Source of the DNA: Thermoplasmata archaeon
GTDB taxonomy: Archaea; Thermoplasmatota; Thermoplasmata; Lutacidiplasmatales; UBA184
Assembly (NCBI GenBank): GCA_030040035.1
Contig: JASHUJ010000186.1
Span: 1-35,068 of the forward strand
Length of the DNA: 35,068 bases
Direction of reading: 5' to 3'
The position numbers and the translations under genes were made by a program. Shown here piece after piece: positions 3,904 to 33,470 of the stretch. The first letter of the stretch is position 1; each line of letters opens with the position of its first letter. The notes under the pieces are model-generated. The model was not told the origin of the DNA and did not search any database. It saw nothing but the letters and a program-made list of their open reading frames with translations.

Positions 3904-4788
3904 CTAGCCGGCGGGGCGTTTTAAGTGAGCCGGAGCGCGGATCGTGAGGTGGAACGGGAGGGCGGGCGCGGAGTGCGTGAGCGCGCCCAAGCTGACGACC
4001 TCCGCTCCGACCGACCGGTAGCGCGCGACGCGCCCGGGGGTGATCCCGCCCGAGAGCTCGATCCGGCGGCCCCGCCGGAGACCGGCAGCGTTCAGGGCCC
4101 GGACGATCCGACGGGCCCCCGCGGGCCCCGCGTTGTCGACGAGCAGCACGTCCGCGCCCGCGCGCGCCGCCGCGAGCGCGGCCCGGACCGTCCGCACTTC
4201 CACCTCGACCGGCTCGCTCGGGCGCGCGGCCGCCCGGGCGCGCCGGACCGCCTCGGCGAGGGGCACGAGCGCGAGGTGGTTGTTCTTGATCAGGATCGCG
4301 TCGGACAGATCGCGCCGGTGCGGTCGCCCCCCACCGTGGACCACCGCCGCCTTCTCGAGGTCCCGCAGGCCCGGGAGGGTTTTGCGCGTCGCCCAGACCT
4401 CGGGCCCCCCGGACCGGGAGTGCGCGGCCCGGACCGCGCGCGCGGTCTCGGTCGCGACCCCGCTCGCGTGCATCAGGAAGTTGAGGAGCGTCCGCTCGAC
4501 GGCGAGGAGGGTGCGCGCGTCGCCCGCGAGCCGGGCGACGACCGTACCGGCGTGGACCCGGCGGCCGTCGCGACCGGCCGCCACGACCCGCAGGCCGGTG
4601 GCCCGGGCGATCGCCCGGAGCTCCACCATCCCGGACAGCACGCCCGGCGCCTGGGCCGTCACGGTCGCCTCGGCCGCGATCGGGCGCGGGAGGAGCGCGC
4701 GCGTCGTTCGGTCCCGCTCGGTCCGGTCCTCGCGCAGCGCCCGTCGGACGAGCGCCGGGACCTCCCTAGTCGGCCGGGGCGTCGTCAT
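3904..4788 (-). CDS. nadC: Nicotinate-nucleotide pyrophosphorylase (carboxylating) / QAPRTase
   Basis: ERTLLN, SGVAT, TRKTLPGLR, HRRDLSDAILIKNNH, EVEV, LVDN, SGGI and GALTHS motifs; adjacent to nadA. Confidence 0.95.
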   Translation of the reverse strand: MTTPRPTREVPALVRRALREDRTERDRTTRALLPRPIAAEATVTAQAPGVLSGMVELRAIARATGLRVVAAGRDGRRVHAGTVVARLAGDARTLLAVERTLLNFLMHASGVATETARAVRAAHSRSGGPEVWATRKTLPGLRDLEKAAVVHGGGRPHRRDLSDAILIKNNHLALVPLAEAVRRARAAARPSEPVEVEVRTVRAALAAARAGADVLLVDNAGPAGARRIVRALNAAGLRRGRRIELSGGITPGRVARYRSVGAEVVSLGALTHSAPALPFHLTIRAPAHLKRPAG

Positions 4789-7171
4789 CGCCCTCGCTCT
4801 CGCCCTCGTCCCCCGCCACCCGGAGCGCTGCGACCAGCCGATCGAGATCGGGCACGACGTCCGGCCGCAGGGAGCGCAGGTTCTGCCGCTCGAGCTCCGT
4901 GACCCGGCGCCGCGCGCTCGCGTGGTCGCCGCGGGCGAACGACAGCTGGGCGAGCCGTAGCAGCACGTCGACCTCGTCCGCCGGGGCCTTCAGCTCGCGG
5001 ACGAGCCGGTACGCTTCCAGCAGGTCCGCCTCGGCCCGGTCGTACTCGCCCCGGTCGAGGCCGATCTTGCCCTGGATGATCAGCGCCTGGACGACCCCGA
5101 ACCGGTCCCCGAGCCGCTCCAGGATCTCGCGCGACCGGTGGACCTTGCGGACCGCCTCCTCGACCTTCCCCGCCTCGCGGAGCACGTCGGCCGAGTTGAA
5201 GAGCGCCCAGGCCACCCGGCGCTGGTCGTGCGCCTTCTCGGCCAGCCGGATCGCCTCGTTGAACTGCGCCTCGGCCGCCTCGAACCGTTCGGGCGTCGGG
5301 GGCCGGCTCGCGAACATCACGCCGAGGAACAGGTGCGCGTGCGCCGCCTCGCGCGCGTCCCCGAGCTCCTCGAGGAGCCGGGCCGCCTCGCGCGTCTCGT
5401 CCATCGCGCGATCGGTCTCCCCGGTCATCGCGAGCACGTTGGCCCGGCGGGCCCGGCTGAGCGCGGTCGCGCGCTCGTTGCCGCTCGTCCGCGCGATCCG
5501 GAACTCCTCGTCATGCTCGGCGAGCGATTCCGGGTAGCGCCCCTGGTAGTACAGCGCCTCGCCCCGGAGCCGGTGCAGCGCGAGCGTGACGAGCGGGTGG
5601 GCCGAGAGGTCGACGCTCCGGAGCACCTTCTCGGTCGTCTCGTCGGCGGCACGCCACTCGCCCTGGTCGGACTGGACCTGGGCGAGGTACAGCTCGGCCA
5701 TCGCGCGGACGGGCGGGCTGATCCGCTCGGAGCCGCGGCGGCCGAGGTGCTCGCGGACCACGCGCTCCGCCTCGTGGAACTCGCCGAGATGGTCGATCTC
5801 CTGTGCGAGCTCGAGGACGAGGCCGGCCTCGCCGTCGGCGTCGTCGGGCCGCAGGCGACGGAATCCCTCGAGCGCGCGCTCGAGGTGCTGGCGCGCGGTC
5901 TCGTGGGCGTACACCCGCTCCGCGATCTCGGCCGCGGTACGGTTGTACTGGACGCTCTTCTCGTCGACCTTCCCGAGGTCGAAGTGCCGCGCGAGGGCGT
6001 AGATCGTCTCGATGTCGGCGCTCCCCGACGCCTCGAGCGCCTCGCCCGCCCGCCGGTGGAGGAGGCGGCGCCGGCTCTCGGTGAGCTGGCCGTAGACCTC
6101 GGCCCGCGCGGCGTCGTCAGGGAACGCGAGGAGCTCGCCGGCCCGCTCGACGAGCAGACCCCGCCCGACGAGCCGGTCGACGGACTCCGCGAGCCGCTCC
6201 TCGTCCTCCCCGCTCGCGCGCAGCAGGACCGAGAACGGGAACTCGGGCCCCAGGACGGAGGCGACCGCGACCGTGCGCTGATCGTCGTCGCCGAGCGGCT
6301 CGGGTCCCGCGGGGGCGGGGCCGCCCGACGGCGGCGTCGGCCAGCGGCGGTCGAACTGCTCGAGCAGGAGCGGGTTGCCGCCCGTCTCCGAGTAGCGGCG
6401 CGCGACCTCCTCCGTGGAGAACTCCCGGTCCGGCTCGCGCCAGTGGAGGTACTCGGCGACCTCCGCGCTCGTGAACGGCCGCAGGTAGGTCCGGCGCGCC
6501 CGCACCGTGCCCTCGAACTCCTCGAGGCGCGCGCGCCGGGACTCCGGCAACGCCTCGAACGGCCGGGACGTCGCGAGGATCCAGAACGGGCGGTCGGCGA
6601 GACGGCCGGCGAGGTACTCGATCGCCTCGAGCGAGAGATCGTCGCTCCGGTGCAGGTCCTCGAGGACGAGGACCGTCGGGCCGGTGCGCGAGACCTCGCG
6701 GAACTGCTCGATGAGGCCGGTCCAGAGCGGCTCGCGCGCGAGCTCGCCCCGCTCGTCGGCCTCCTCGATCTCGGAGAGGAGGCGCTCCTCGATCCGCACC
6801 GGCGTCGGGAGCTCGGAGAGCCGCAGGCGCGGGGCGAAGCCGATGAGGACGCTCGCCGGACCCGAGGGCCCCCCGAGCGGTTCGTCCGCCGACGTCGCGA
6901 GATCGCGGGCGCTCTCGATCGCCGAGCGGATCAGGGAGAGCGGCGGCGGGGCATCGAGCGCCGGTGCGCGCCCGACCAGGACCTGGGCGCCGCGCACGCG
7001 GAAGTCGCGGACGAGCTCGCCGACGAGCGTCGACTTACCCGTACCGGTCGCGCCGACGAGGATCGTGACCCCGCCGCTCCCGGCCCGCGCGTCGTCGAAG
7101 CGTCGGTACAGCGCTTCGACCGCCTCCATCCGGCCGAGGAACGTTCGGCTGTCCCCGACCCCGGTTGCCAT
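4766..7171 (-). CDS. STAND-class P-loop ATPase (AAA_16-like) with C-terminal TPR-like repeats
   Basis: Walker A GATGTGKS, Walker B VLVLEDLH, STAND GxP motif TGGNPL and ASVLG..F winged-helix segment, followed by about 400 aa of helical repeats. Confidence 0.85.
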   Translation of the reverse strand: MATGVGDSRTFLGRMEAVEALYRRFDDARAGSGGVTILVGATGTGKSTLVGELVRDFRVRGAQVLVGRAPALDAPPPLSLIRSAIESARDLATSADEPLGGPSGPASVLIGFAPRLRLSELPTPVRIEERLLSEIEEADERGELAREPLWTGLIEQFREVSRTGPTVLVLEDLHRSDDLSLEAIEYLAGRLADRPFWILATSRPFEALPESRRARLEEFEGTVRARRTYLRPFTSAEVAEYLHWREPDREFSTEEVARRYSETGGNPLLLEQFDRRWPTPPSGGPAPAGPEPLGDDDQRTVAVASVLGPEFPFSVLLRASGEDEERLAESVDRLVGRGLLVERAGELLAFPDDAARAEVYGQLTESRRRLLHRRAGEALEASGSADIETIYALARHFDLGKVDEKSVQYNRTAAEIAERVYAHETARQHLERALEGFRRLRPDDADGEAGLVLELAQEIDHLGEFHEAERVVREHLGRRGSERISPPVRAMAELYLAQVQSDQGEWRAADETTEKVLRSVDLSAHPLVTLALHRLRGEALYYQGRYPESLAEHDEEFRIARTSGNERATALSRARRANVLAMTGETDRAMDETREAARLLEELGDAREAAHAHLFLGVMFASRPPTPERFEAAEAQFNEAIRLAEKAHDQRRVAWALFNSADVLREAGKVEEAVRKVHRSREILERLGDRFGVVQALIIQGKIGLDRGEYDRAEADLLEAYRLVRELKAPADEVDVLLRLAQLSFARGDHASARRRVTELERQNLRSLRPDVVPDLDRLVAALRVAGDEGESEGDDDAPAD

Positions 7172-7210: not shown

Positions 7211-8389
7211 CTACCCTCGCTTCGCCGGCACGAACGGCAGCGGGACGACCCGGGCCGGGACCTCCCGACCGCGGATCTCGAGGGCGACCGACGTCCCGGG
7301 GACGGCGAGCGGGGGCGGGAGGTAGGCGAGCGCGATGCCGCGCCCGAGCGTCGGCGAGATCCCCCCGCTCGTCGCCGCGGTGATCTCGGTGCCGTTCGCG
7401 CGGACGGGGGTCCCGTGGCGGGGGATCGCGCCCGGCGCGTCGGTCTCGATCCCCGCGAGCCGGACCGCGGGTCCGTCCGTTCGCTGCTTCTCGAGCGCGG
7501 GGCGCCCCACGAACTCGTGCGCGAAATCGACGAACCGGTCCTGGCCGGCTTCGATCGGCGTGTGATCGCGGTGGAACTCCTGGCCCGAGAGGAGGTACCC
7601 CTTCTCGAGCCGCAGCGAGTCGCGGGCCCCGAGCCCGATCGGGGTCGCCCCGGCCGCGACGAGCCGCTCGGCGAGGACGTCCGCGGACTCCGCCGGGACG
7701 AAGAGCTCGTAGCCGAGCTCGCCCGTGTAACCCGTCCGGCTCACCAGCGTCGTCTCGGCGAGCGCGGCCGGGAACGGCCGCCCGAGCGTGCCCCCGGCCT
7801 CGCCCGGGCCGGGCGCCGCGGGGAAGAACGCGGCGTGGTAGAAGGCGAGCGGACCGAGCTGCCAGCCGAAGACGCCCTCCAGGAGCGCACGGGAACGCGG
7901 CCCCTGCAGCGCGAGGAGCGCGACCTTCCCGTTCCACCGGGCGATCTCGGTGTCGGGCCCGCGGTGCTGACGGAGGATCTCCTCGACCTCGTCGGCGCGG
8001 CCCGCGTTCGGCACCGCGAGGTGCGTGCGCGCGAGCTCGTCCCCCCGGTCGAGCCGGCTCACGAGGAGGTCGTCGACGATGCCGCCGCTCGACTCGAGCA
8101 GGAACGTGTAGCGCACCTGGCCCGGGGCGAGGAGCGGGACGTTCGCCGTCGTCCGGCGCGCGAGGAGATCGGCCGCGTGGGCCCCGGCGAGGCTCAGGAT
8201 CCCCATGTGCGAGACGTCGAAGAGGCCGACGCCGGTCCGCACCGCGCGGTGCTCGGCGAGGATGCTCGAGTAGTAGAGGGGCATCTCCCAGCCGGCGAAC
8301 GGGACGAAGTGCGCGCCGTGACGCCGGTGGAACTCGTAGAGCGGGGTGCGGCGCAGCTCGGCCGTCCCCGGCGCCGGGTCCGCGCTCAC
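7211..8389 (-). CDS. gcvT: Glycine cleavage system aminomethyltransferase T
   Basis: RTPLY..H, FAGWEMPLYY, EHRAVR, LFDVSHMG, SRTGYTGELGYE and GLGARDSLRLEKG. The real start is GTG at 8389, overlapping the purP TGA. The upstream part of the 905-aa track ORF is a shadow frame. Confidence 0.95.
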   Translation of the reverse strand: MSADPAPGTAELRRTPLYEFHRRHGAHFVPFAGWEMPLYYSSILAEHRAVRTGVGLFDVSHMGILSLAGAHAADLLARRTTANVPLLAPGQVRYTFLLESSGGIVDDLLVSRLDRGDELARTHLAVPNAGRADEVEEILRQHRGPDTEIARWNGKVALLALQGPRSRALLEGVFGWQLGPLAFYHAAFFPAAPGPGEAGGTLGRPFPAALAETTLVSRTGYTGELGYELFVPAESADVLAERLVAAGATPIGLGARDSLRLEKGYLLSGQEFHRDHTPIEAGQDRFVDFAHEFVGRPALEKQRTDGPAVRLAGIETDAPGAIPRHGTPVRANGTEITAATSGGISPTLGRGIALAYLPPPLAVPGTSVALEIRGREVPARVVPLPFVPAKRG

Positions 8390-14023: not shown

Positions 14024-14123
14024 CGGGCTTGCTGGGAGTTCCGTCGCGCGCGCCCGCGCGATTTCGAACCCAGGTCGTTGGCTTCGAAGGCCAACAGGAT
14101 AGTCCAGACTACCCCACAAGCCC
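14024..14123 (-). tRNA. tRNA-Arg(UCG) with a 25-nt intron at position 59/60 (T-loop)
   Basis: Minus strand: acceptor GGGCTTG/CAAGCCC plus discriminator G; anticodon arm TTGGC-CTTCGAA-GCCAA (anticodon 14085-14087); T-arm CTGGG-TTCGAA[intron]T-CCCAG. Spliced length is 75 nt; CCA is not encoded. Confidence 0.93.
14038..14062 (-). other. Archaeal bulge-helix-bulge tRNA intron (non-canonical site)
   Basis: Intron ATCGCGCGGGCGCGCGCGACGGAAC. Central helix TTCG/CGGA, 3-nt bulges AA^A and AC^T, inner 7-bp helix TCGCGCG/CGCGCGA; the outer helix is the T-stem. Confidence 0.88.
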
Positions 14124-14174: not shown

Positions 14175-17100
14175 TCACGGACCGCGGGGGCCGGCCGGGG
14201 CGGGGCGGAATCGGTCGAGCGTGGTCTGGGAGCTCGCGCCGGGGAAGAGCGTCGCCACCGAGTCGGCGAGCAGCTCGATGCGCTGGCGGACGTACGGCGT
14301 GATCCCGTCGATACCGGCGAGGCGTTGGGAGAGCGGCAGATACTTGCGGACCGATGCCTCGTAGACCGTCGAGAGGAGCTCGCCGTCGCACCGGGCCCCG
14401 CCGGGCCGCAAGGCGACGCACCGACCCGAGAGCGGCGGCCGTCGGTAGGACGTACCGCACTCCTTGCAGCGGAACTTCTGAGTCGCGTAGCTCTTCAGAT
14501 TCCCCATGACGTCGGGGAGGAAGTGGGCGTTGAGGACCAGCGTCACCGCCTCGGCGACGTCCACCGCGCGGATCTCGGCCGCGAGCACGGTCGAGCGCTC
14601 GACCATCTCGGCCATCGAGCGGCTCTCGCGGTACGCGGACCGGACCGGGCCCCCCGCGATGCGGCGGGTGTCGTGGGTGAACCGGTACGCCCGGAGCGCC
14701 TCGGGGGTCCCCAGGCGGCGGCCGACCTTGTCGAGGAGGCCGTCGACCTCCTTCGCCGGCCGCCGTTCGTCGGCGGCGCGGTAGAGCGCGAGCGGGTAGT
14801 GGGCCCCGACGTCCAGGTTGTGCGCCTCCTTGTCGACCTCGGTCGGGTCGATCCGCGTCGTCAGGACGAGGGGCTTGTCCATCAGCGCGCCGCGGCTCGC
14901 GGGCAGGTAGGCCCGGGAGAAGTTGAGGAGCGCATCGAGGAGCAGCGTGACGGAGTCCTCGTCCCCGTCGCAATTCCGCCGCTTCGCCGCGTGGAAGACC
15001 GGGTGGGCGAAGCAGGCCTCGGCCTCGGTGAAACCGAGGACGCGGCCCGCGACCGCCCCCGAGGTGTGGGGCGCGAGGGCGGTGACGATCTGCCCTACTA
15101 GGTCCTCGGGGCGCGCGGCCCGGTAGAATGGCTCGAGGTTGTAGAGGCGCACGAGCTCGTCATCGACGAACTGGGCGAGACGAGTGAGATACGTCCCGCA
15201 GGACCGGGAGACGATCAGGTCCTGCGGCGCGAGCTCGATCAGCTGCTCCGCGTCCGTGATCGGAGCCCCGGTCCAGTCCGTCGCGTAGCCGAGCCGCGCG
15301 AGCGTCGGGAGGTCGATCCCGATCTCCGCCGGGCGGAAGTGCGTGAGCGGGAGATCGGTGAGGTCGAATCGGGCCGTCCCGTCCTGGTAGACCGAGATCG
15401 CGTGGGTCGCCCGGAGGATCCCCTTCTCGAGCGGTTCCGGGACCTTGCCCGGCGACGTGAGGCCCTTGACGCCCTTGACGACGGGCACCTTGCCGAGATG
15501 CAGGCGGGAGAGCGCCTCGCTCCACAAGGGGGCGATCGGCAGGGTCTCGGAGACGACGCGGCCGGTCGGCTCGGTGTGGGCTCCGCACGGGCAGCGCGTC
15601 CAGACGGTGGTCCGACCGCACGCCGGGCAGGTCCGGACCCCGAGGTCGACCTTCGTGCCCTCGCGCATCGTGTTGCGGGCCGCCTCCGGCACCGAACGGC
15701 TCGCCCCGCCCGCCGTCCCGACCGGGAACAGCGCGTGGATGTTCGGCTGCATCGCCCGCTGGTACGCCTTCTCCGGTCGGCCGACGCGACCTCCGACGCG
15801 GGACGGGGCGCGCGCTCGTACCGACACTCCCGCCAATCGGCTCACGTAGTCCAGCGGGTCGGTTCCGGGAGGATCGAGTGCGACACGTCGGATGAGGAGC
15901 GAGCCCTCCACCGAGAGCCCGAGCGCCCCCACGAGCGCCGCGCTGGGGTCGGGCTCGCCCCGGAGTCGGTCCGGCTCGAGCGGGAACGACAGGAATCCCA
16001 GGCGGGCGAGCGGCTCGTGCCAGGACGGGTCGCGCGGTAGTTCGAGGGCGCCATCCCGCCAGCTACCGGATCGCTCGACGAACTCGGAGAGCGCTCGGAT
16101 CTCGGCCGTCGTGAGGTCGTGCCAGAAGAGGAGCCAGCGGGGGTGGAGCGGGACGGAGCGCTCGCGCGCGAGCGCGCTGGCCTCGTCGTACGTCGCGAGC
16201 GACGCCCCGTAGACCGGATCGACCCCGGCGGCCCGGAGTTCTTCGAGGTGGCGATCGAGGGAGTACGCGCCGGGCACGAGCGGACGGTTGTTCTCGACGA
16301 ACTCGCCGAAGGAGACGAGCAGCTCGCCGAGGTCGAGGATCCGCGTCACCCGGGGTCGCAGCTCCTCCGCCCGCGCGACGTCGTGGACCGCGGTCACGGT
16401 GCCGTCGTCGAGCTCGACGATCGGTCCGTCGATCGTGTCGCAGACCGCCATCGCGGTCGCCTTCCCAGGGTACTCGAGCTTGACCTGCGTGCCGATCGCC
16501 ACGAAGTGCTGGAGGATCACCATCGCCGCCGGGTTGATCGCGCACGCGGCGAGGCCCGTCGTCCGGGCCCGCCCGTAGACGAGCCGGAACCCGCCCGGGT
16601 GGTTCGGGTGCGCCAGGACCGGCCGGCCCCCGACCGAGTCCTGGAGGTACTTCGGCGTGCGCGTCTCCTCCTCGTCGACCGCGCCGTGGCCGATCTCGGC
16701 GAGGAACTCCCAGCCGTCGATCCCAAGGTTCTCGACGATCTTTCGCACCTTCGCGGCCTTCTGGCAGAGGCCCTCGGCGATCACGAGACACGCCCCTCCG
16801 CGGATCCCGTTGGTCGGGACGCGGGCCAGGTTGCGGAAGGAGCTCACCTCCGCGTCGCCCTCGGTCGCCTCGCCCGAGATCGCGACCGGCACGTTCCGGG
16901 CGATCCGTTCGATCTCCGCGGCGGTCGGCACGTACTGGAGGTGCTGATGGTACTTGTAGAGCGGGATCTCCTCCTGGTACCGCTCGACCTCGCCCGGTTC
17001 GGGCACGTACCGGGCGAGGCCAAGGTCGCGTCGCACGACGTCCGCGAGCAGGACGCTCAGCGCCTGCGCGGTCGCGCCCGCCGCCCGGATCGGTCCGGCG

Positions 17101-17510
17101 TAGTACAGCTCGACATACTGGCTCCCGTCGCGCGCGGGGCACACGTGGACCTCGGCGAGGCCCTCGAGCGGGGCGACCAGGATCCCTTCCGTCAGGATCG
17201 CGAGGCCGACCCGGAGCGCGGCATCGAGCCGGGCCTCCGTCGACGCGCCGCGCGAGGGGTCGCGGGCGAGGCGTCGGGCAATGGTGAGCGCGACCTCTTC
17301 CCGCGGCATCTGGGCGGCCAGGGCCCGGATCTCCGTCGAGATCCCCTCGATCCCGAGGTGGGCGAGCAGCTGCTCGACGCGGGAGGCCATGTCCTGTGCC
17401 CGCGGGATCTCGGTGCGCGCTTCGGGATCATACCCCTCCCGCCGCGCGCGCTCGGCGACCTCGTACGCCCGGTCGACCGAGGATTCGATCGCGCGAAAGT
17501 ACGATTCCAC
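14175..17510 (-). CDS. polC: DNA polymerase D large subunit (DP2)
   Basis: TEGILVAPLEG, YAGPIRAAG, GGFRLVYGRARTTG, KGVKGL..EPLEKGILRA, catalytic KRRNCDGDED, C-terminal Zn finger and PIP-box-like QTTLDRF. GTG start lies 23 nt after CTTAAG. Confidence 0.97.
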   Translation of the reverse strand: MESYFRAIESSVDRAYEVAERARREGYDPEARTEIPRAQDMASRVEQLLAHLGIEGISTEIRALAAQMPREEVALTIARRLARDPSRGASTEARLDAALRVGLAILTEGILVAPLEGLAEVHVCPARDGSQYVELYYAGPIRAAGATAQALSVLLADVVRRDLGLARYVPEPGEVERYQEEIPLYKYHQHLQYVPTAAEIERIARNVPVAISGEATEGDAEVSSFRNLARVPTNGIRGGACLVIAEGLCQKAAKVRKIVENLGIDGWEFLAEIGHGAVDEEETRTPKYLQDSVGGRPVLAHPNHPGGFRLVYGRARTTGLAACAINPAAMVILQHFVAIGTQVKLEYPGKATAMAVCDTIDGPIVELDDGTVTAVHDVARAEELRPRVTRILDLGELLVSFGEFVENNRPLVPGAYSLDRHLEELRAAGVDPVYGASLATYDEASALARERSVPLHPRWLLFWHDLTTAEIRALSEFVERSGSWRDGALELPRDPSWHEPLARLGFLSFPLEPDRLRGEPDPSAALVGALGLSVEGSLLIRRVALDPPGTDPLDYVSRLAGVSVRARAPSRVGGRVGRPEKAYQRAMQPNIHALFPVGTAGGASRSVPEAARNTMREGTKVDLGVRTCPACGRTTVWTRCPCGAHTEPTGRVVSETLPIAPLWSEALSRLHLGKVPVVKGVKGLTSPGKVPEPLEKGILRATHAISVYQDGTARFDLTDLPLTHFRPAEIGIDLPTLARLGYATDWTGAPITDAEQLIELAPQDLIVSRSCGTYLTRLAQFVDDELVRLYNLEPFYRAARPEDLVGQIVTALAPHTSGAVAGRVLGFTEAEACFAHPVFHAAKRRNCDGDEDSVTLLLDALLNFSRAYLPASRGALMDKPLVLTTRIDPTEVDKEAHNLDVGAHYPLALYRAADERRPAKEVDGLLDKVGRRLGTPEALRAYRFTHDTRRIAGGPVRSAYRESRSMAEMVERSTVLAAEIRAVDVAEAVTLVLNAHFLPDVMGNLKSYATQKFRCKECGTSYRRPPLSGRCVALRPGGARCDGELLSTVYEASVRKYLPLSQRLAGIDGITPYVRQRIELLADSVATLFPGASSQTTLDRFRPAPAGPRGP

Positions 17511-28753: not shown

Positions 28754-29053
28754 GGGGTCCCGCGCGCTGATGCCGGGGGAACCGAACGCGCGCACGGCCG
28801 GACCGCTACGGACTACCCGTTCCCCCGCTCTACCTTTTGCGGACCGCGAAAATGAACGTTCCGCTGCCGCAACGTCCACATTCCAAGGGCACGGATAGCT
28901 ATATAGAGTGTGCGGACAATAGGTAGTTGGCCTCGGGCATCGGTGGCAGCGTCTCCTGGTGGCACCGTCCAAGAGACCTGGAGCGCCCCGCCGGTGCCTT
29001 CCCGATGCGTCTCGAACGATACCTTCTTTTGGGACACGACGGAACGACCGGCA

Positions 29054-29755
29054 ATGGTCGCCTTCTTCGGTCCGTCGGACGAAGATCTCGAACGCCTGCG
29101 CGCCACGGTGGAGTCCCTCGGCACGACCAGTGTGCCGGGGCTCGCCGCCGCGCTGGCCTGGCGCGAACGCAAGGCCGAGAAGCTGCTCGCCCACGAGCTC
29201 GCGCGGCCGAACACCCGGCTCATCTACGACCCGGCCCGCCGGGTCGTCCGGTATAGTCGCCCCGCACCGCCCGCCGCGCCGGCCGAGCGGCCCGCGGTCC
29301 GGGCGGCGGTCCGGGACCCCTCGCCCTCCGCGCCCCGCGCCCCGGCGCCGGTCCTCACCGGGACGACCTTGAAGACCCTCTGCCCGTCCTGCCACGTCGC
29401 GCTCATCCCGACCGGCTCGGCGAGCCTCGCGGTCTGCCCGCAGTGCGGCCGACTCGCCTCGTCCCGCGGAGGGCCGACGGAGACGGCCGCCTCCCCGGCG
29501 TCGGCCGCGGCGGACCCCACCGCGGGCTCCGCCCCGTCGGCCGTCGCGCCGGTCCACATCGGCGACCGGCGCTCCCAGGAACTGTTCGCGGCGTACGTGA
29601 CGTCGAAGCCGATCCCCTGCCCAAAGTGCCGGACGCCGCTCCGCCACCGGGGCCTCAGCGAGTACGTCTGTCCGAGCTGCGCCCAGACGGTGCAATTCCC
29701 GCGCGGGACGGTCCCCGCGCCACCGGCCGCCGCCCCGCCGGCCCCGCCCGCCTAG
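29054..29755 (+). CDS. Hypothetical protein: N-terminal wHTH-like domain plus two CxxC..CxxC zinc ribbons
   Basis: CPSC..CPQC and CPKC..CPSC separated by Pro/Ala linkers. ATG at 29054 (MVAFFG) marks the onset of coding-like composition. Confidence 0.7.
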   Translation: MVAFFGPSDEDLERLRATVESLGTTSVPGLAAALAWRERKAEKLLAHELARPNTRLIYDPARRVVRYSRPAPPAAPAERPAVRAAVRDPSPSAPRAPAPVLTGTTLKTLCPSCHVALIPTGSASLAVCPQCGRLASSRGGPTETAASPASAAADPTAGSAPSAVAPVHIGDRRSQELFAAYVTSKPIPCPKCRTPLRHRGLSEYVCPSCAQTVQFPRGTVPAPPAAAPPAPPA

Positions 29756-31293
29756 TACGGCACGGCCGCCCGGACCTCGCCGACGAGCGAGCGGTCCAGG
29801 ATCGCCGCGGCGACCCGCTCGATGTCGGGGGCCGGACTGCGGTCCCGCGTCCACGGCGCGACCCGCGTCCGGAGCGATCGGAGCGCGGACTCGCTGCCCC
29901 GCCCGCCGACGCGGGGCCGCCGGAGCTCGAGCGCCTGGCCGGCGACGATCCACTCGACCGCGACGATCCGCCGCGTGTTCGCGAGCACCCGCCGGAGTTT
30001 CGCGCCCGCCCACGGCCCCATCGACACGAAATCCTCCTGATCGGCGGAGGTGGACAGGCTCGCCGCGCTCGCCGGATGCACGAGCGTCTCGTTCTCGTTG
30101 ACGAGGGCCGCCGCGAGGTACTGGGGGACCATGAACCCCGAGCTCACGCCCGGATCGGGCGCGAGGAAGGCGGGCAGGCCCCGGTTGAGCGCGGGGTGGA
30201 CGAGGCGGGCGATCCGCCGCTCGCTGAACGCGGCGATGTACTGGATCGCGAGCGCGAGCGCGTCGAGGGCGAAGGCGAGGGGCTGGCCGTGGAAGTTGCC
30301 CCCGTTGACGAACTCGTCGTCGGAGAAGACCACCGGGTTGTCGCTGACCGCGTTCAGCTCGGAGGCCAGGACGCGCTCGGCGAACTCGAGGGCGATCCGC
30401 ACGGCGGCGAGGACCTGGGGGATGCACCGCAGGGTGTACGGGTCCTGGCCCTTCCACTCGTGGCGGGGGGCCGCGAGCTCGCTCCCCTCGAGGAGCCGGC
30501 GCATCGCGAGCGCGACCGCCCGCTGATCCGGCGAGTTGCGGACCTCCCCGAGGCGGTCGTCGAGCGACTCGGGCGACCCTTCGAGCGCGTCGTACGAGAG
30601 CGCCGCGGCGACGAGCGAGGCATCGAGGAGCTCCCGGCCCTCCGCGACCGCGAGCCCGAGGTACGACGCCATCAGCGCCGTCCCGTTGAGGAGCGCGACC
30701 CCCTCCTTGGCGGCGAGCTCGAGCGGGAGGAGGTGGTGCTCGGCGAGCACGGCGCGGGCCGGGACCGGGGCGGTCGACCCGGCGCGCACGAACTCCCCTT
30801 CCCCGATCAGCGCGAGCGACAGGTGGGCGAGCGGCGCGAGGTCGCCCGACGCGCCGACCGAGCCCTGCTCCGGGACCCACGGCACGAGGCCGCGGTTCAG
30901 GAATTCGGCGAGGAGGTCGACGACGGCCTCCCGGACCCCGGAGTGGCCGCGCAAGAGCGAGTTTAGACGGACGAGCATCATGCCGCGGACGACGTCCTCG
31001 GGGAGCGGCGGCCCCGTCCCGCTCGCATGGCTGCGGACGAGCGATGTCTGGAGCTCGGCCGCCTTGTCGCGGGGGACGACCCGGTCCGAGAGCGCGCCGA
31101 AGCCGGTCGTGACCCCGTAGATCCGCCGATCGCTCGCCACCGCGCGCTCGACGGCCCCGCGGCTCCGGGCCACGGAGCGCCGGGCGTCCGCCGTGAGCGC
31201 GACGGCGCGGCCGTCCCGCGCGACCGACAGGAACGCCGCGAGGGTCAGCGACCGTCCGTCCAGCGGTACGGTCTCGGCGAGAGAGCGGTCCAC
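29752..31293 (-). CDS. hutH: Histidine ammonia-lyase
   Basis: YGVTTGFG, LVRSHA, MIO-forming GSVGASGDLAPL, KEGVALLNGT, QDPYTLRCIPQ, GGNFHG and QEDFVSMG. Confidence 0.93.
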   Translation of the reverse strand: MDRSLAETVPLDGRSLTLAAFLSVARDGRAVALTADARRSVARSRGAVERAVASDRRIYGVTTGFGALSDRVVPRDKAAELQTSLVRSHASGTGPPLPEDVVRGMMLVRLNSLLRGHSGVREAVVDLLAEFLNRGLVPWVPEQGSVGASGDLAPLAHLSLALIGEGEFVRAGSTAPVPARAVLAEHHLLPLELAAKEGVALLNGTALMASYLGLAVAEGRELLDASLVAAALSYDALEGSPESLDDRLGEVRNSPDQRAVALAMRRLLEGSELAAPRHEWKGQDPYTLRCIPQVLAAVRIALEFAERVLASELNAVSDNPVVFSDDEFVNGGNFHGQPLAFALDALALAIQYIAAFSERRIARLVHPALNRGLPAFLAPDPGVSSGFMVPQYLAAALVNENETLVHPASAASLSTSADQEDFVSMGPWAGAKLRRVLANTRRIVAVEWIVAGQALELRRPRVGGRGSESALRSLRTRVAPWTRDRSPAPDIERVAAAILDRSLVGEVRAAVPY

Positions 31294-31312
31294 GGGGGTC
31301 CGGACCCCACGC

Positions 31313-31846
31313 TCAGGCGGCGACCGGGACGACGAGCTCGCCGCCCGGCTTTTGCATCGACGGCTGGCGCTTCGTCGCCACGCCCTTCGTCTGCCAGAAG
31401 ATCTCCGCGAAGTCCTGGACGAGCTTGAGGAGCTCCTGTGCGTCCGTGAGGGCGATCCCCTGGCGGCACTTCGACGCCTGCTTCAGGATCTGGAAGACGA
31501 GATCGGAGGTCTTCGGGAACTGCTTCAGGTGGTCGGGGGTGAAATAGTCGCCCCAGATCACGCGGACCTGCTGCTTCACCAGTTCCGCGTGCTGCTCCTT
31601 GACCGCCGTGTACCGCGCCATCTTGGAGGAGTACGCCGCCCGCTCCTCGGGCTTCGAGTCCGTGGGGGGCTGGGGGAGCTCGCCGATCAGCTGGTCCATC
31701 CGGATCACGGTCAGGGCGGCCAGCTGCGCCTCGTGCGGGTCATAAATACCGCACGGAATGTCGCAGTGGGCGTAGACCGTGCGCGGGGGATGCACGCGGT
31801 CCCAGAGGCGTTCGACCCAGTCGAGCGAGCGAGAGGGGGCGGACAT
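31313..31846 (-). CDS. sodN: Nickel-dependent superoxide dismutase precursor
   Basis: 26-aa leader ending VYA, then the Ni-hook HCDIPCGIYDP. Also KEQHAE, IWGDYF and FAEIFWQTK. Confidence 0.95.
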   Translation of the reverse strand: MSAPSRSLDWVERLWDRVHPPRTVYAHCDIPCGIYDPHEAQLAALTVIRMDQLIGELPQPPTDSKPEERAAYSSKMARYTAVKEQHAELVKQQVRVIWGDYFTPDHLKQFPKTSDLVFQILKQASKCRQGIALTDAQELLKLVQDFAEIFWQTKGVATKRQPSMQKPGGELVVPVAA

Positions 31847-31876
31847 GCCCGGGCGAGCCCGGAGGGGCCGATAAAG

Positions 31877-32263
31877 GTGCCGGCGCGCAACGATCCGGCC
31901 GCGGCCCCACCGCCGGAGCGGGCGCGGGTCTCCCGCTGGCGGACCCGCCGGGTGGAGGTCGCGGACGCGAGCATGGCCCCGACCCTGCGGCCCGGGGATC
32001 GGCTATTGGTCGACCGCGGGGCGTACCGCACCGCCCCGCCCGAGATCGGGGACATCGTCGTCCTGATCGACCCGGAGCGCTCGGACCGCTGGCTCATCAA
32101 GCGGGTGCTCGCCGTCGATCCGGGCGCCGGCACGCTGGAGGTCCGGGGCGATGCGCGGGAGGTCGCCCGGGACAGCCGTCAGTTCGGGGCCGTGCCACTG
32201 CGTTCCGTCATCGGCCGGGCGTTCCGCCGCTACCACCCTCCCGACCGGATCGGCGACCTCTAG
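31877..32263 (+). CDS. sodX: Ni-SOD maturation protease (S26 peptidase family)
   Basis: Ser/Lys dyad motifs SMAPTLRPGDRLLV and LIKRV, plus GD....RDSRQFG; no TM anchor; divergent from sodN. Start is GTG 31877 or 31952. Confidence 0.85.
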   Translation: MPARNDPAAAPPPERARVSRWRTRRVEVADASMAPTLRPGDRLLVDRGAYRTAPPEIGDIVVLIDPERSDRWLIKRVLAVDPGAGTLEVRGDAREVARDSRQFGAVPLRSVIGRAFRRYHPPDRIGDL

Positions 32264-32283
32264 GGTCCCCCCCAACGCTTAAG

Positions 32284-32306
32284 CGATGTGTGAAATGCAC
32301 ACATCG
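32284..32306. promoter_or_regulatory. Perfect 9-5-9 inverted repeat between TATA box and wtpA start (candidate Mo/W-responsive operator)
   Basis: CTTAAG (32278-32283), then CGATGTGTG-AAATG-CACACATCG, then ATG at 32307. Confidence 0.72.
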
Positions 32307-33470
32307 ATGTCCGCAGCTGCCCCGGCTCCGACCCCGTCGACGCTCCCGCCGCCGCCTCCCGGACCCGGCACTTCCACGGCCGTCTGGATCGTGGTCGTGA
32401 TCGTGATCGCCGCGGCGGTCGGAGGACTCGGGTTCTACGCCGGGTACGAGTACCGCGGCTCGTCCGCCTCGTCGCCCAGCGGCATCGTGAACTCTACGCT
32501 GTCGATCCTGGGCGCCGGCACCCTGACGTACACGTTCCCCGAGCTGGCGAGCGCGCTCGTCAACGAGACCCCGGGCATCTCCGCGCCGGCCGCGGCCCAG
32601 ACGTACGAGGGCTCCCTCGATATCACGACCGCGATCACGACGCTGGACGCGAAGGCGGACGTCGCTGCCCTCGCCGACTTCCGATTGATCCCGCAGCTCC
32701 TCCAGCCGACGTACGCGAGCTACGAGGTCGTGTTCGCCCACACCCAGGAGGTCCTCATCTACAACTCGTCGATCTCGGAGTTCAACGGGATCAGCCCCTC
32801 GAACTGGGGCCAGAAGCTCGTCAACGCGGTGACCAGTCCGGGCGTGCCCCGCTTCGGCGTCTGGAACGCCTCGACCGACCCGAACGGCTACAACGAGATC
32901 TTCACGATGATGCTGCAGGGCCAGATGTACCAGGGCGGGAACCTCTCCGCCGTCTACGGCCACTTCTACAGCGGTGCCCCGGGCAGCTACGCGACCCCCA
33001 ACCCGTCGACCACCATCCTCGAGCACGAGTCCCAGGCGGCGAACCTCGTCCGCACGGGCGTCGTCTCGGCCGTGATCACGTACAAGCCGGTCGCGCTCCA
33101 GAACAACCTCTCCTACGTGCCGATCGATCCGACCGTCGGGCTCTATTCGAACGACTCGGCCGCCTTGAACACTTACGCGGCCCTGCCCGGGACGCAGATC
33201 ATCTCCTCCTCGGGCGCGCTCGTCACGGTCCATCCTGCGCCGATCTTCTTCGCGGTGACCGTCCCGCTGAACGCGCCGAACCCGGCGCTCGGCGCCGCGT
33301 TCATCCACCTCATCCTGTCCCCCGTCGGTCGATCGATCCTGACGGAGGACAACGCCTGGACCCCGGTCTATCCGGGCTGGACGAACAACATGACCGCGGT
33401 CCCCCCGGTGCTCGCGCCGGACGTCGTCCCCCTGCCCGCCTGGGCGGCGCCGTTCGTCCCTAGTTCATGA
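32307..33470 (+). CDS. wtpA: Tungstate/molybdate ABC transporter substrate-binding protein (WtpA-like)
   Basis: N-terminal TM anchor; GAGTL, EGS, ADVAALAD..LIP, DPNGY and HES motifs match the WtpA pattern. ATG at 32307 lies 23 nt after CTTAAG. Confidence 0.8.
   Translation: MSAAAPAPTPSTLPPPPPGPGTSTAVWIVVVIVIAAAVGGLGFYAGYEYRGSSASSPSGIVNSTLSILGAGTLTYTFPELASALVNETPGISAPAAAQTYEGSLDITTAITTLDAKADVAALADFRLIPQLLQPTYASYEVVFAHTQEVLIYNSSISEFNGISPSNWGQKLVNAVTSPGVPRFGVWNASTDPNGYNEIFTMMLQGQMYQGGNLSAVYGHFYSGAPGSYATPNPSTTILEHESQAANLVRTGVVSAVITYKPVALQNNLSYVPIDPTVGLYSNDSAALNTYAALPGTQIISSSGALVTVHPAPIFFAVTVPLNAPNPALGAAFIHLILSPVGRSILTEDNAWTPVYPGWTNNMTAVPPVLAPDVVPLPAWAAPFVPSS

Follow-up and report, generated by a model that had tools for sequence, protein, structure and literature searches.

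In Streptomyces, the nickel superoxide dismutase (NiSOD, or Ni-SOD) encoded by sodN carries a leader of 14 residues, the peptidase gene sodX lies adjacent to sodN in the bacterial manner, and sodF and sodN are subject to a Nur-controlled switch. Archaea, too, have the enzyme: Sutherland et al. (2021, bioRxiv 10.1101/2021.01.12.426412) report it from 26 archaea, with several bacteria-to-archaea transfers, PMC10783094 places it in all major archaeal groups, mostly in Marine Group II (MGII), and Sheridan et al. (2022, PMC9287336) list Ni-SOD (K00518) among the stress genes of the Lutacidiplasmatales. Here, we analyze a sodN-sodX pair in a 35,068-nucleotide stretch of DNA from a Thermoplasmata archaeon (GenBank assembly GCA_030040035.1, contig JASHUJ010000186.1), hereafter the window, which is the whole of contig C122 of a 1.63-Mb metagenome-assembled genome (MAG) with 211 contigs, a completeness of 73.7%, a contamination of 0.26%, and a mean contig GC of 0.70. 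The pair very probably forms a functional Ni-SOD system, bacterial in origin and for a long time now inherited vertically as a core trait of a soil and peat family of Thermoplasmata, most likely Lutacidiplasmatales. Direct support comes from gene identity, motifs, predicted fold, layout, conservation, archaeal context, and Ni uptake genes; cleavage before residue His27 of the precursor, Ni binding, the oligomer, and enzymatic activity would follow the Streptomyces and cyanobacterial systems, on which these expectations are modeled.

The sodN gene (31313-31846, minus strand; stop codon 31313-31315) is an open reading frame for a precursor of 177 residues that scores above the cutoffs of both Pfam Sod_Ni (PF09055; 149 bits against 25) and NCBIfam TIGR02753 sodN (150.5 bits against 90). 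Its translation begins with a 26-codon leader, or propeptide, MSAPSRSLDWVERLWDRVHPPRTVYA (31769-31846, minus strand), which ends in VYA ahead of the predicted cut before His27, and continues with the Ni-hook HCDIPCGIY, His27 to Tyr35, whose codons we read from the sequence at 31742-31768 on the minus strand (His27 at 31766-31768). When aligned to the mature Streptomyces enzyme in the Protein Data Bank (PDB; 1t6u/1q0d), His27 pairs with residue 1 and the hook with residues 1-9. Across 49 aligned SodN sequences, H27 to P37 are invariant, as are the Ala|His-Cys junction and the leader residues Pro21 and Ala26, and in 63 of 71 related loci an in-frame ATG stands exactly 26 codons ahead of the His codon. 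By analogy with the bacterial enzymes, we infer that the leader is removed between Ala26 and His27. One sodN subclade has a 20-codon leader, and four of its members (L019, L088, L089, and L091) depart from the head-to-head layout, sodX preceding sodN on the same strand; three family genomes (G206, G413, and G422) each carry two copies of sodN.

Relative to 1t6u/1q0d, SodN has a 13-residue insertion after helix 1, and the PDB alignment stops at residue 154, short of a C-terminal extension of 23 residues (155-177; 31316-31384, minus strand) that is without counterpart in the Streptomyces structures and in which P162, S163, Q165, K166, G168, G169, and V172 are invariant among the 49 sequences. 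An AlphaFold2 model of residues 2-177, built on the same alignment, has a mean predicted local distance difference test (pLDDT) score of 88.2, and the best 12 matches retrieved with it by Foldseek are all NiSOD chains (E about 1e-6; template modeling score of 0.86-0.89 on target length), so by prediction SodN adopts a four-helix-bundle fold. The model further predicts a helix in the leader at precursor residues 6-18 (pLDDT 64-81) and a beta hairpin in the extension, with strands 158-162/170-174 (pLDDT about 80). Because the matches of Dehalococcoidia relatives reach query residues 174-177 and cover the extension, we regard it as a feature of this type of SodN and not as an archaeal addition.

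On the opposite strand, sodX (31877-32263, plus strand; GTG start) encodes an S26 Ser/Lys peptidase of 128 residues, which scores 64.7 bits against the Pfam Peptidase_S26 cutoff of 22.9. Ser32 (within SMAPTL; codon 31970-31972), Lys75 (within KRV; codon 32099-32101), and the RDSR box (box E) pair with signal peptidase I structures (SpsB and LepB), and S32, K75, D99, and S100 are invariant in 40 SodX sequences. The highest 19-residue Kyte-Doolittle mean is 0.46 (at most 1.33 across all 40 relatives), so the protein is soluble and has no membrane anchor. SodX is bacterial in type, given that it scores 65.4 bits with the sigpep_I_bact model and 19.3 bits with the archaeal signal peptidase model. 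Its start, M, V, or L followed by Pro, is kept in 48 relatives. A predicted complex of SodX with SodN residues 2-71 scored 0.02 against a mark of 0.32, a result that speaks neither for nor against binding.

The two start codons, ATG of sodN and GTG of sodX, are 30 bp apart and face away from each other. A TATA-like box, TTTATC (31870-31875, minus strand), lies 24-29 nucleotides ahead of the ATG of sodN. The element is conserved in all 66 unique upstream regions obtained from relatives, whose consensus is CCGGCAyCTTTATCC: 97-98% of them have A/T at positions -28 to -25, compared with 5-30% for most columns nearby. From this pattern we infer an archaeal TATA promoter and a leaderless or near-leaderless mRNA. 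Immediately upstream of the TATA box is a CAT/CAC that, read on the other strand, is the start codon of sodX. A Shine-Dalgarno-like GGAGGGG, read from the sequence at 31861-31867 (plus strand), stands 9-11 nucleotides ahead of the sodX GTG, and many of the 66 regions have a complementary CCTCC-like run between -20 and -15 (judged by eye and uncounted); such a GGAGG-like run could act as the ribosome-binding site of sodX. We located no promoter for sodX.

These results agree in every detail with what an original prediction, made from the letters of the window, had observed of the pair itself. The SodN precursor that it described (26-residue leader, VYA/H cleavage context, HCDIPCGIY hook with its His codon at 31766-31768, and C-terminal extension) is borne out by the open reading frame, the profile scores, and the PDB alignment; its head-to-head, soluble S26 Ser/Lys peptidase is borne out by the 30-bp gap, the Pfam match, the invariant Ser and Lys, and the low hydropathy; and the archaeal-type TTTATC box that it placed 24 nucleotides upstream of sodN is present there and conserved in relatives. 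In the mechanism that we propose, the archaeal TATA promoter of sodN would give rise to a leaderless or near-leaderless mRNA, translated into a cytoplasmic precursor, which soluble SodX, through Ser32 and Lys75, would cut between Ala26 and His27. As in the bacterial enzymes, the liberated N-terminal amine, the side chain of His27, the amide and thiolate of Cys28, and the thiolate of Cys32 would then wrap Ni to form the Ni-hook, which, carried on the four-helix bundle, would dismutate superoxide. The Ni would be supplied by a NikR-controlled nickel/cobalt transporter (NiCoT) permease encoded elsewhere in the genome.

The arrangement is conserved well beyond the window. With one genome scanned per species, 80 sodN loci were recovered, 66 of them within the SodN clade of the window. 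Each of the 66 has a SodX-like gene (as counted with a hidden Markov model from eight seeds) no more than 1.5 kb from sodN, divergent from it in 63 loci and ahead of it on the same strand in the other 3. The sodX genes of L031, L037, and L084, which are upstream on the opposite strand, are counted as divergent, their "downstream opposite" calls being envelope artifacts. Outside the clade, 11 of the 14 further loci of the scan have sodX downstream of sodN and on the same strand, an order shared by 12 of 12 MGII-like loci. Within the clade, hutH adjoins sodN in 48 of 66 loci and a wtpA-like gene adjoins sodX in 46. Across the phylum, sodN is present in 83 of 401 sampled genomes, concentrated in the family of the window (8 of 9 sampled) and in two families of another class, where it is of a different type (hook HCDGPCGVYDP; mature length of 135-138 residues). 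A dense sample of the family comprises 61 genomes, including that of the window and three that are unpublished (G455, G425, and G443; counts without these three follow in parentheses), and sodN occurs in 58 of the 61 (55/58), among them 41 of 43 high-quality genomes and members of all 7 genera.

Genes for nickel handling are nearly as widespread in the same sample: NikR is encoded in 58/61 genomes (55/58) and the NiCoT permease, NicO, in 54/61 (51/58), and of the 52 genomes having both, 48 (45 of 49) encode them side by side, 39 on one strand and 9 divergently. The genome of the window is among the divergent cases. There, genes for NicO, NikR, and an Fe/Mn-type superoxide dismutase (SOD) occur together on contig C148, next to the gene for the archaeal termination factor FttA; NicO scores 307 bits, the regulator scores 28.8 bits with RHH_1 and 53.8 bits with NikR_C, and nicO and nikR are divergent and 559 bp apart. 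The Fe/Mn-type SOD gene (L110:10531-11181, plus strand) is about 2.2 kb from this pair (L110:6439-7647, minus strand, and 7765-8289, plus strand) and encodes 216 residues, with a Pfam match to the C-terminal domain only (72 bits) and a best PDB match to 1coj (E 3e-23). Fe/Mn-SOD is rare in the family, at 2/61 genomes (G000 and G427; 2/58), and in G427 its gene (L112:3861-4511, minus strand) is directly downstream of nikR (4686-5264, minus strand) on the same strand. The Fe/Mn-type enzyme could be a nickel-linked backup SOD. Three matches to heme-copper oxidase (COX1) were found in the genome of the window. The original prediction had held that the pair implied an oxygen-exposed lifestyle and a route of Ni supply, and had proposed a search of the genome for Fe/Mn-SOD, Ni transporters, and nickel regulators; the heme-copper oxidase genes and the NikR-NiCoT locus fit both expectations, and that search turned up the three genes on C148 but no Fur/Nur at 73.7% completeness.

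To place SodN, we built a tree of 171 rows (quick search, LG+G4), in which the window sequence falls within an 80-row clade with a support of 99 in the Shimodaira-Hasegawa-like approximate likelihood ratio test (SH-aLRT). In this clade, 63 rows bear the title Thermoplasmata or Thermoplasmatota (isolates of the AcS and SubAcS series among them) and 3 are titled "bacterium"; it also includes other family genomes and 4 cluster representatives. The next groups outward are mixed, containing other archaeal and unnamed sequences (support of 81-89), and are followed by Dehalococcoidia/Chloroflexota; P0124, a cluster representative near the clade, is from Chloroflexi. Uniting the window clade with the MGII-type archaeal SodN is rejected (log-likelihood lower by 102; approximately unbiased test, p-AU of 0.0004), in a test whose groups were named after a first tree had been seen, and we conclude from this rejection that the phylum acquired Ni-SOD at least twice. 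The "bacterium"-titled sequences inside the archaeal clade (L030, L076, and L088) probably have titles that are too coarse or wrong: L030 has archaeal neighbors and a PolD 80% identical to that of the window, whereas L076 and L088 show only sodN and sodX and come from one MAG, which consequently has two sodN copies.

Could the pair be a recent horizontal acquisition peculiar to this organism? Both genes are bacterial in type, and the nearest non-archaeal relatives are Dehalococcoidia/Chloroflexota sequences at 55-58% identity, but sodN is present in 58/61 family genomes and 7/7 genera, the clade is monophyletic (SH-aLRT of 99), and synteny, leader length, and promoter are conserved. Codon composition is also that of the host, as the original prediction had said, with a GC content at third codon positions (GC3) of 0.927 in sodN and 0.922 in sodX, against 0.925-0.97 in seven other genes of the window. 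A recent arrival is thus highly improbable, and the horizontally acquired, domesticated Ni-SOD of the original prediction stands as regards the bacterial type and the archaeal promoter, but not as something specific to this genome, since the trait is old and family-wide. Still less credible, to the point of being negligible, is a bacterial fragment fused to archaeal DNA through mis-assembly or mis-binning, for which one could cite the bacterial type of the genes (the SodX scores above) and the fragmentation of the MAG into 211 contigs. The gene for the archaea-specific large subunit of PolD, DP2 (14175-17510), is on the same 35-kb contig as sodN, as are genes for PurP, FtsZ, and a DUF7289 protein; the order wtpB-wtpA-sodX/sodN-hutH recurs in dozens of independent assemblies, some in contigs of 0.4-1.8 Mb; GC3 is uniform; and the contamination of the MAG is 0.26%. 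Compared with the DP2 of five named MAGs that also have this sodN, the DP2 of the window shows 68-80% identity (68-76% for four AcS/SubAcS MAGs), and sodN and PolD share a contig in 3 of those five. Both junctions are bridged by contigs from four public peat and soil runs of two studies, hutH/sodN by, for example, 31028-31704 and sodN/sodX/wtpA by, for example, 31743-32887; these are short Logan contigs, none covering the whole window, and a gap at 31705-31738 falls within the most conserved, high-depth part of sodN. Given the conserved synteny, the identity and contig sharing of DP2, and the public contigs across the junctions, the contig is archaeal and a chimera is very unlikely, which answers the check on contig taxonomy and chimerism that had been proposed along with the original prediction.

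The remaining alternative concerns maturation: SodX may not be the maturase of SodN but, for example, a general peptidase, or the archaeal enzyme may be matured or metallated differently. The leader, at 26 residues and with a predicted helix, is longer than that of Streptomyces, no experimental work on an archaeal Ni-SOD was found in the literature searched, and SodX scores 61.4 bits with NCBIfam TIGR02754, the model for the Ni-SOD maturation protease, just below its cutoff of 63.25 (profile positions 3-88 of 90). The second sphere of the metal site differs as well. Streptomyces NiSOD has a hydrogen-bond triad, His1-Glu17-Arg47 (PMC5722923), that is not retained at the aligned positions of SodN: the Glu17 position is Ala43 (Ala, Ser, or Gly among relatives) and the Arg47 position is His86, invariant in relatives, and with these replacements the second sphere is a different one. 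MGII-type SodN also has no Glu at the Glu17 position, which marks the triad as a feature of the Streptomyces enzyme and not of the whole Ni-SOD family. On the other side, sodX adjoins sodN in 66/66 clade loci despite three gene orders across the wider tree, and both the catalytic residues of SodX and the Ala|His-Cys junction of SodN are invariant, so we hold a different maturation to be improbable. Along with the TIGR02754 score and the lost triad, four further points count against a functional, long-inherited system of bacterial origin in Lutacidiplasmatales. The sister group of the SodN clade is mostly unnamed, and the phylogeny, which had been proposed as a check and which did establish the archaeal distribution, narrows the donor only to a "Chloroflexota-type" SodN radiation. 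The SodX tree (119 columns) is poorly resolved, with Thermoplasmatota needing 6 changes where the starred branches force only 2, and for this reason a joint transfer of sodN and sodX is neither supported nor contradicted. The assignment of the host, most likely Lutacidiplasmatales, is based on protein similarity, synteny, GC, and habitat. Finally, searches of the genome of the window for Fur/Nur (PF01475) and Cu/Zn-SOD (PF00080) turned up neither, a weak point at 73.7% completeness and not evidence of absence.

The surroundings of the pair had been described as hutH on one side and an archaeal wtp operon on the other. The former is confirmed, in that hutH (29752-31293, minus strand) passes NCBIfam equivalog cutoffs; the latter is not, in that the genes after sodX match WtpA and WtpB best but far under the curated cutoffs (115 against 355 bits and 172.5 against 340 bits), and they encode a Mo/W/sulfate-type ABC importer whose substrate assignment is putative. 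Between sodX and the wtpA-like gene, at 32279-32309 (plus strand), a TATA-like TTAAGCG and an inverted repeat precede a start codon (TTAAGCGATGTGTGAAATGCACACATCGATG); the strict pattern of this arrangement recurs in 33 of 49 loci, with further variants visible, and it suggests a promoter and an operator belonging to the importer alone, with translation truly starting at the ATG at 32307 in place of 32286. Adjoining hutH, 28910-29755 (plus strand) encodes a protein of 281 residues with weak double zinc-ribbon matches, all under Pfam cutoffs, and a homologue of it is found in 42 of 66 related loci. A tRNA-Arg gene (TCG; 14048-14123, minus strand) is directly downstream of the PolD large-subunit gene. 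In the public runs, summed contig depth reaches 79-350 in some bins of 31444-31811 and 32732-32915, against about 5-10 over most of the window, and these peaks probably reflect many related strains with common conserved stretches. No RNA run containing the window was listed among the public runs, a result that is neutral as to expression.

The genome of the window, at 70% GC and 1.63 Mb with 74% completeness and present in peat and soil runs, can be set beside the Lutacidiplasmatales as characterized in passages of PMC9287336: aerobic respiration, about 69% GC, genomes of about 2.1 Mb, and acid soils. Seven MAGs (AcS1-67, AcS4-93, AcS5-107, AcS13-54, SubAcS10-22, SubAcS15-31, and SubAcS15-120) have SodN of the window clade at 58-71% identity, with the same neighbors. 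AcS13-54 and SubAcS15-31 appear as "Ca. Lutacidiplasmatales" in Table 1 of PMC9287336, and we assign the other AcS and SubAcS MAGs to that study by their naming pattern. Archaeal Ni-SODs of this very clade were thus already described, a circumstance that the original prediction had itself named as grounds for refutation. Its statement that none has been characterized in archaea holds for biochemistry, as far as the literature was searched, but not for novelty, with archaeal Ni-SOD published in 2021 and 2022. The SOD passages of PMC9287336 give the KEGG call K00518 only, and in those passages there is no sodX, leader, promoter, C-terminal extension, or NikR-NiCoT link (no search was aimed at sodX). 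The term sodX is absent from the main text of Sutherland et al. 2021 (10.1101/2021.01.12.426412), and "peptidase," "heterologous," and "expressed" do not occur in PMC10783094. Our literature search, whose scope lay outside subscription journals, found no expression or assay of any archaeal Ni-SOD and no treatment of archaeal sodX. NCBI names close homologues "superoxide dismutase, Ni [Thermoplasmata archaeon]." The Ni-SOD pair is real, ordinary, and already known, an old and published trait of the whole family.

As a discovery, then, the locus has little weight, with archaeal Ni-SOD in print since 2021, in this order since 2022, and its homologues already named in databases. It is useful as a compact test case, with two genes and a predicted cut site, in a setting where expression or assay of an archaeal Ni-SOD has apparently never been reported, and a laboratory that works on metalloenzymes could study the conserved C-terminal hairpin and the altered second sphere at little cost. 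With superoxide defense depending almost exclusively on nickel (sodN in 58/61 family genomes, Fe/Mn-SOD in 2/61), the oxygen tolerance of these acid-soil and peat archaea is tied to nickel supply. More speculatively, and with the odds against it, the family enzyme may represent a structurally distinct subclass of Ni-SOD (26-residue helical leader, loop insertion, invariant hairpin P-S-x-Q-K-x-G-G, and Ala/Ser43 with His86) that is fed by NikR-NiCoT and serves as practically the sole SOD of the lineage; in the rare genomes with an Fe/Mn-type SOD gene by nikR, the two genes would allow a nickel-responsive two-SOD switch, for which the Nur-controlled switch of Streptomyces would be the analogue.

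Set against known systems, the window SodN belongs to the same Pfam and NCBIfam family as that of Streptomyces (PDB 1T6U and 1Q0D), and the two share the hook H-C-D-x-P-C-G-x-Y directly behind a leader ending in Ala, a four-helix-bundle fold (here by prediction), and a small soluble S26 Ser/Lys peptidase gene adjoining sodN, with an identity of about 32-34% over the fold alignment. Only the window SodN has the 13-residue insertion after helix 1 and the 23-residue conserved C-terminal hairpin; its gene, unlike that of Streptomyces, has an archaeal host and a TATA box promoter, its leader is of 26 residues against 14, and its sodX is divergent. The nearest named bacterial relatives are the SodN proteins of Dehalococcoidia/Chloroflexota, at 55-58% identity and with the extension covered, but their gene order differs, sodN being followed by sodX on one strand in 6 of 8 named loci (L093, L096, L097, and L100-L102); the exceptions are L090, without sodX within 1.5 kb, and L105, with sodX upstream on the opposite strand. 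The Ni-SOD of MGII (Poseidoniales) likewise has a Thermoplasmatota host, a bacterial origin, and a sodX adjoining sodN (12/12 loci), but it differs in being a separate acquisition, with the hook HCDGPCGVYDP, a mature length of 135-138 residues, no C-terminal hairpin, and sodX downstream on the same strand.

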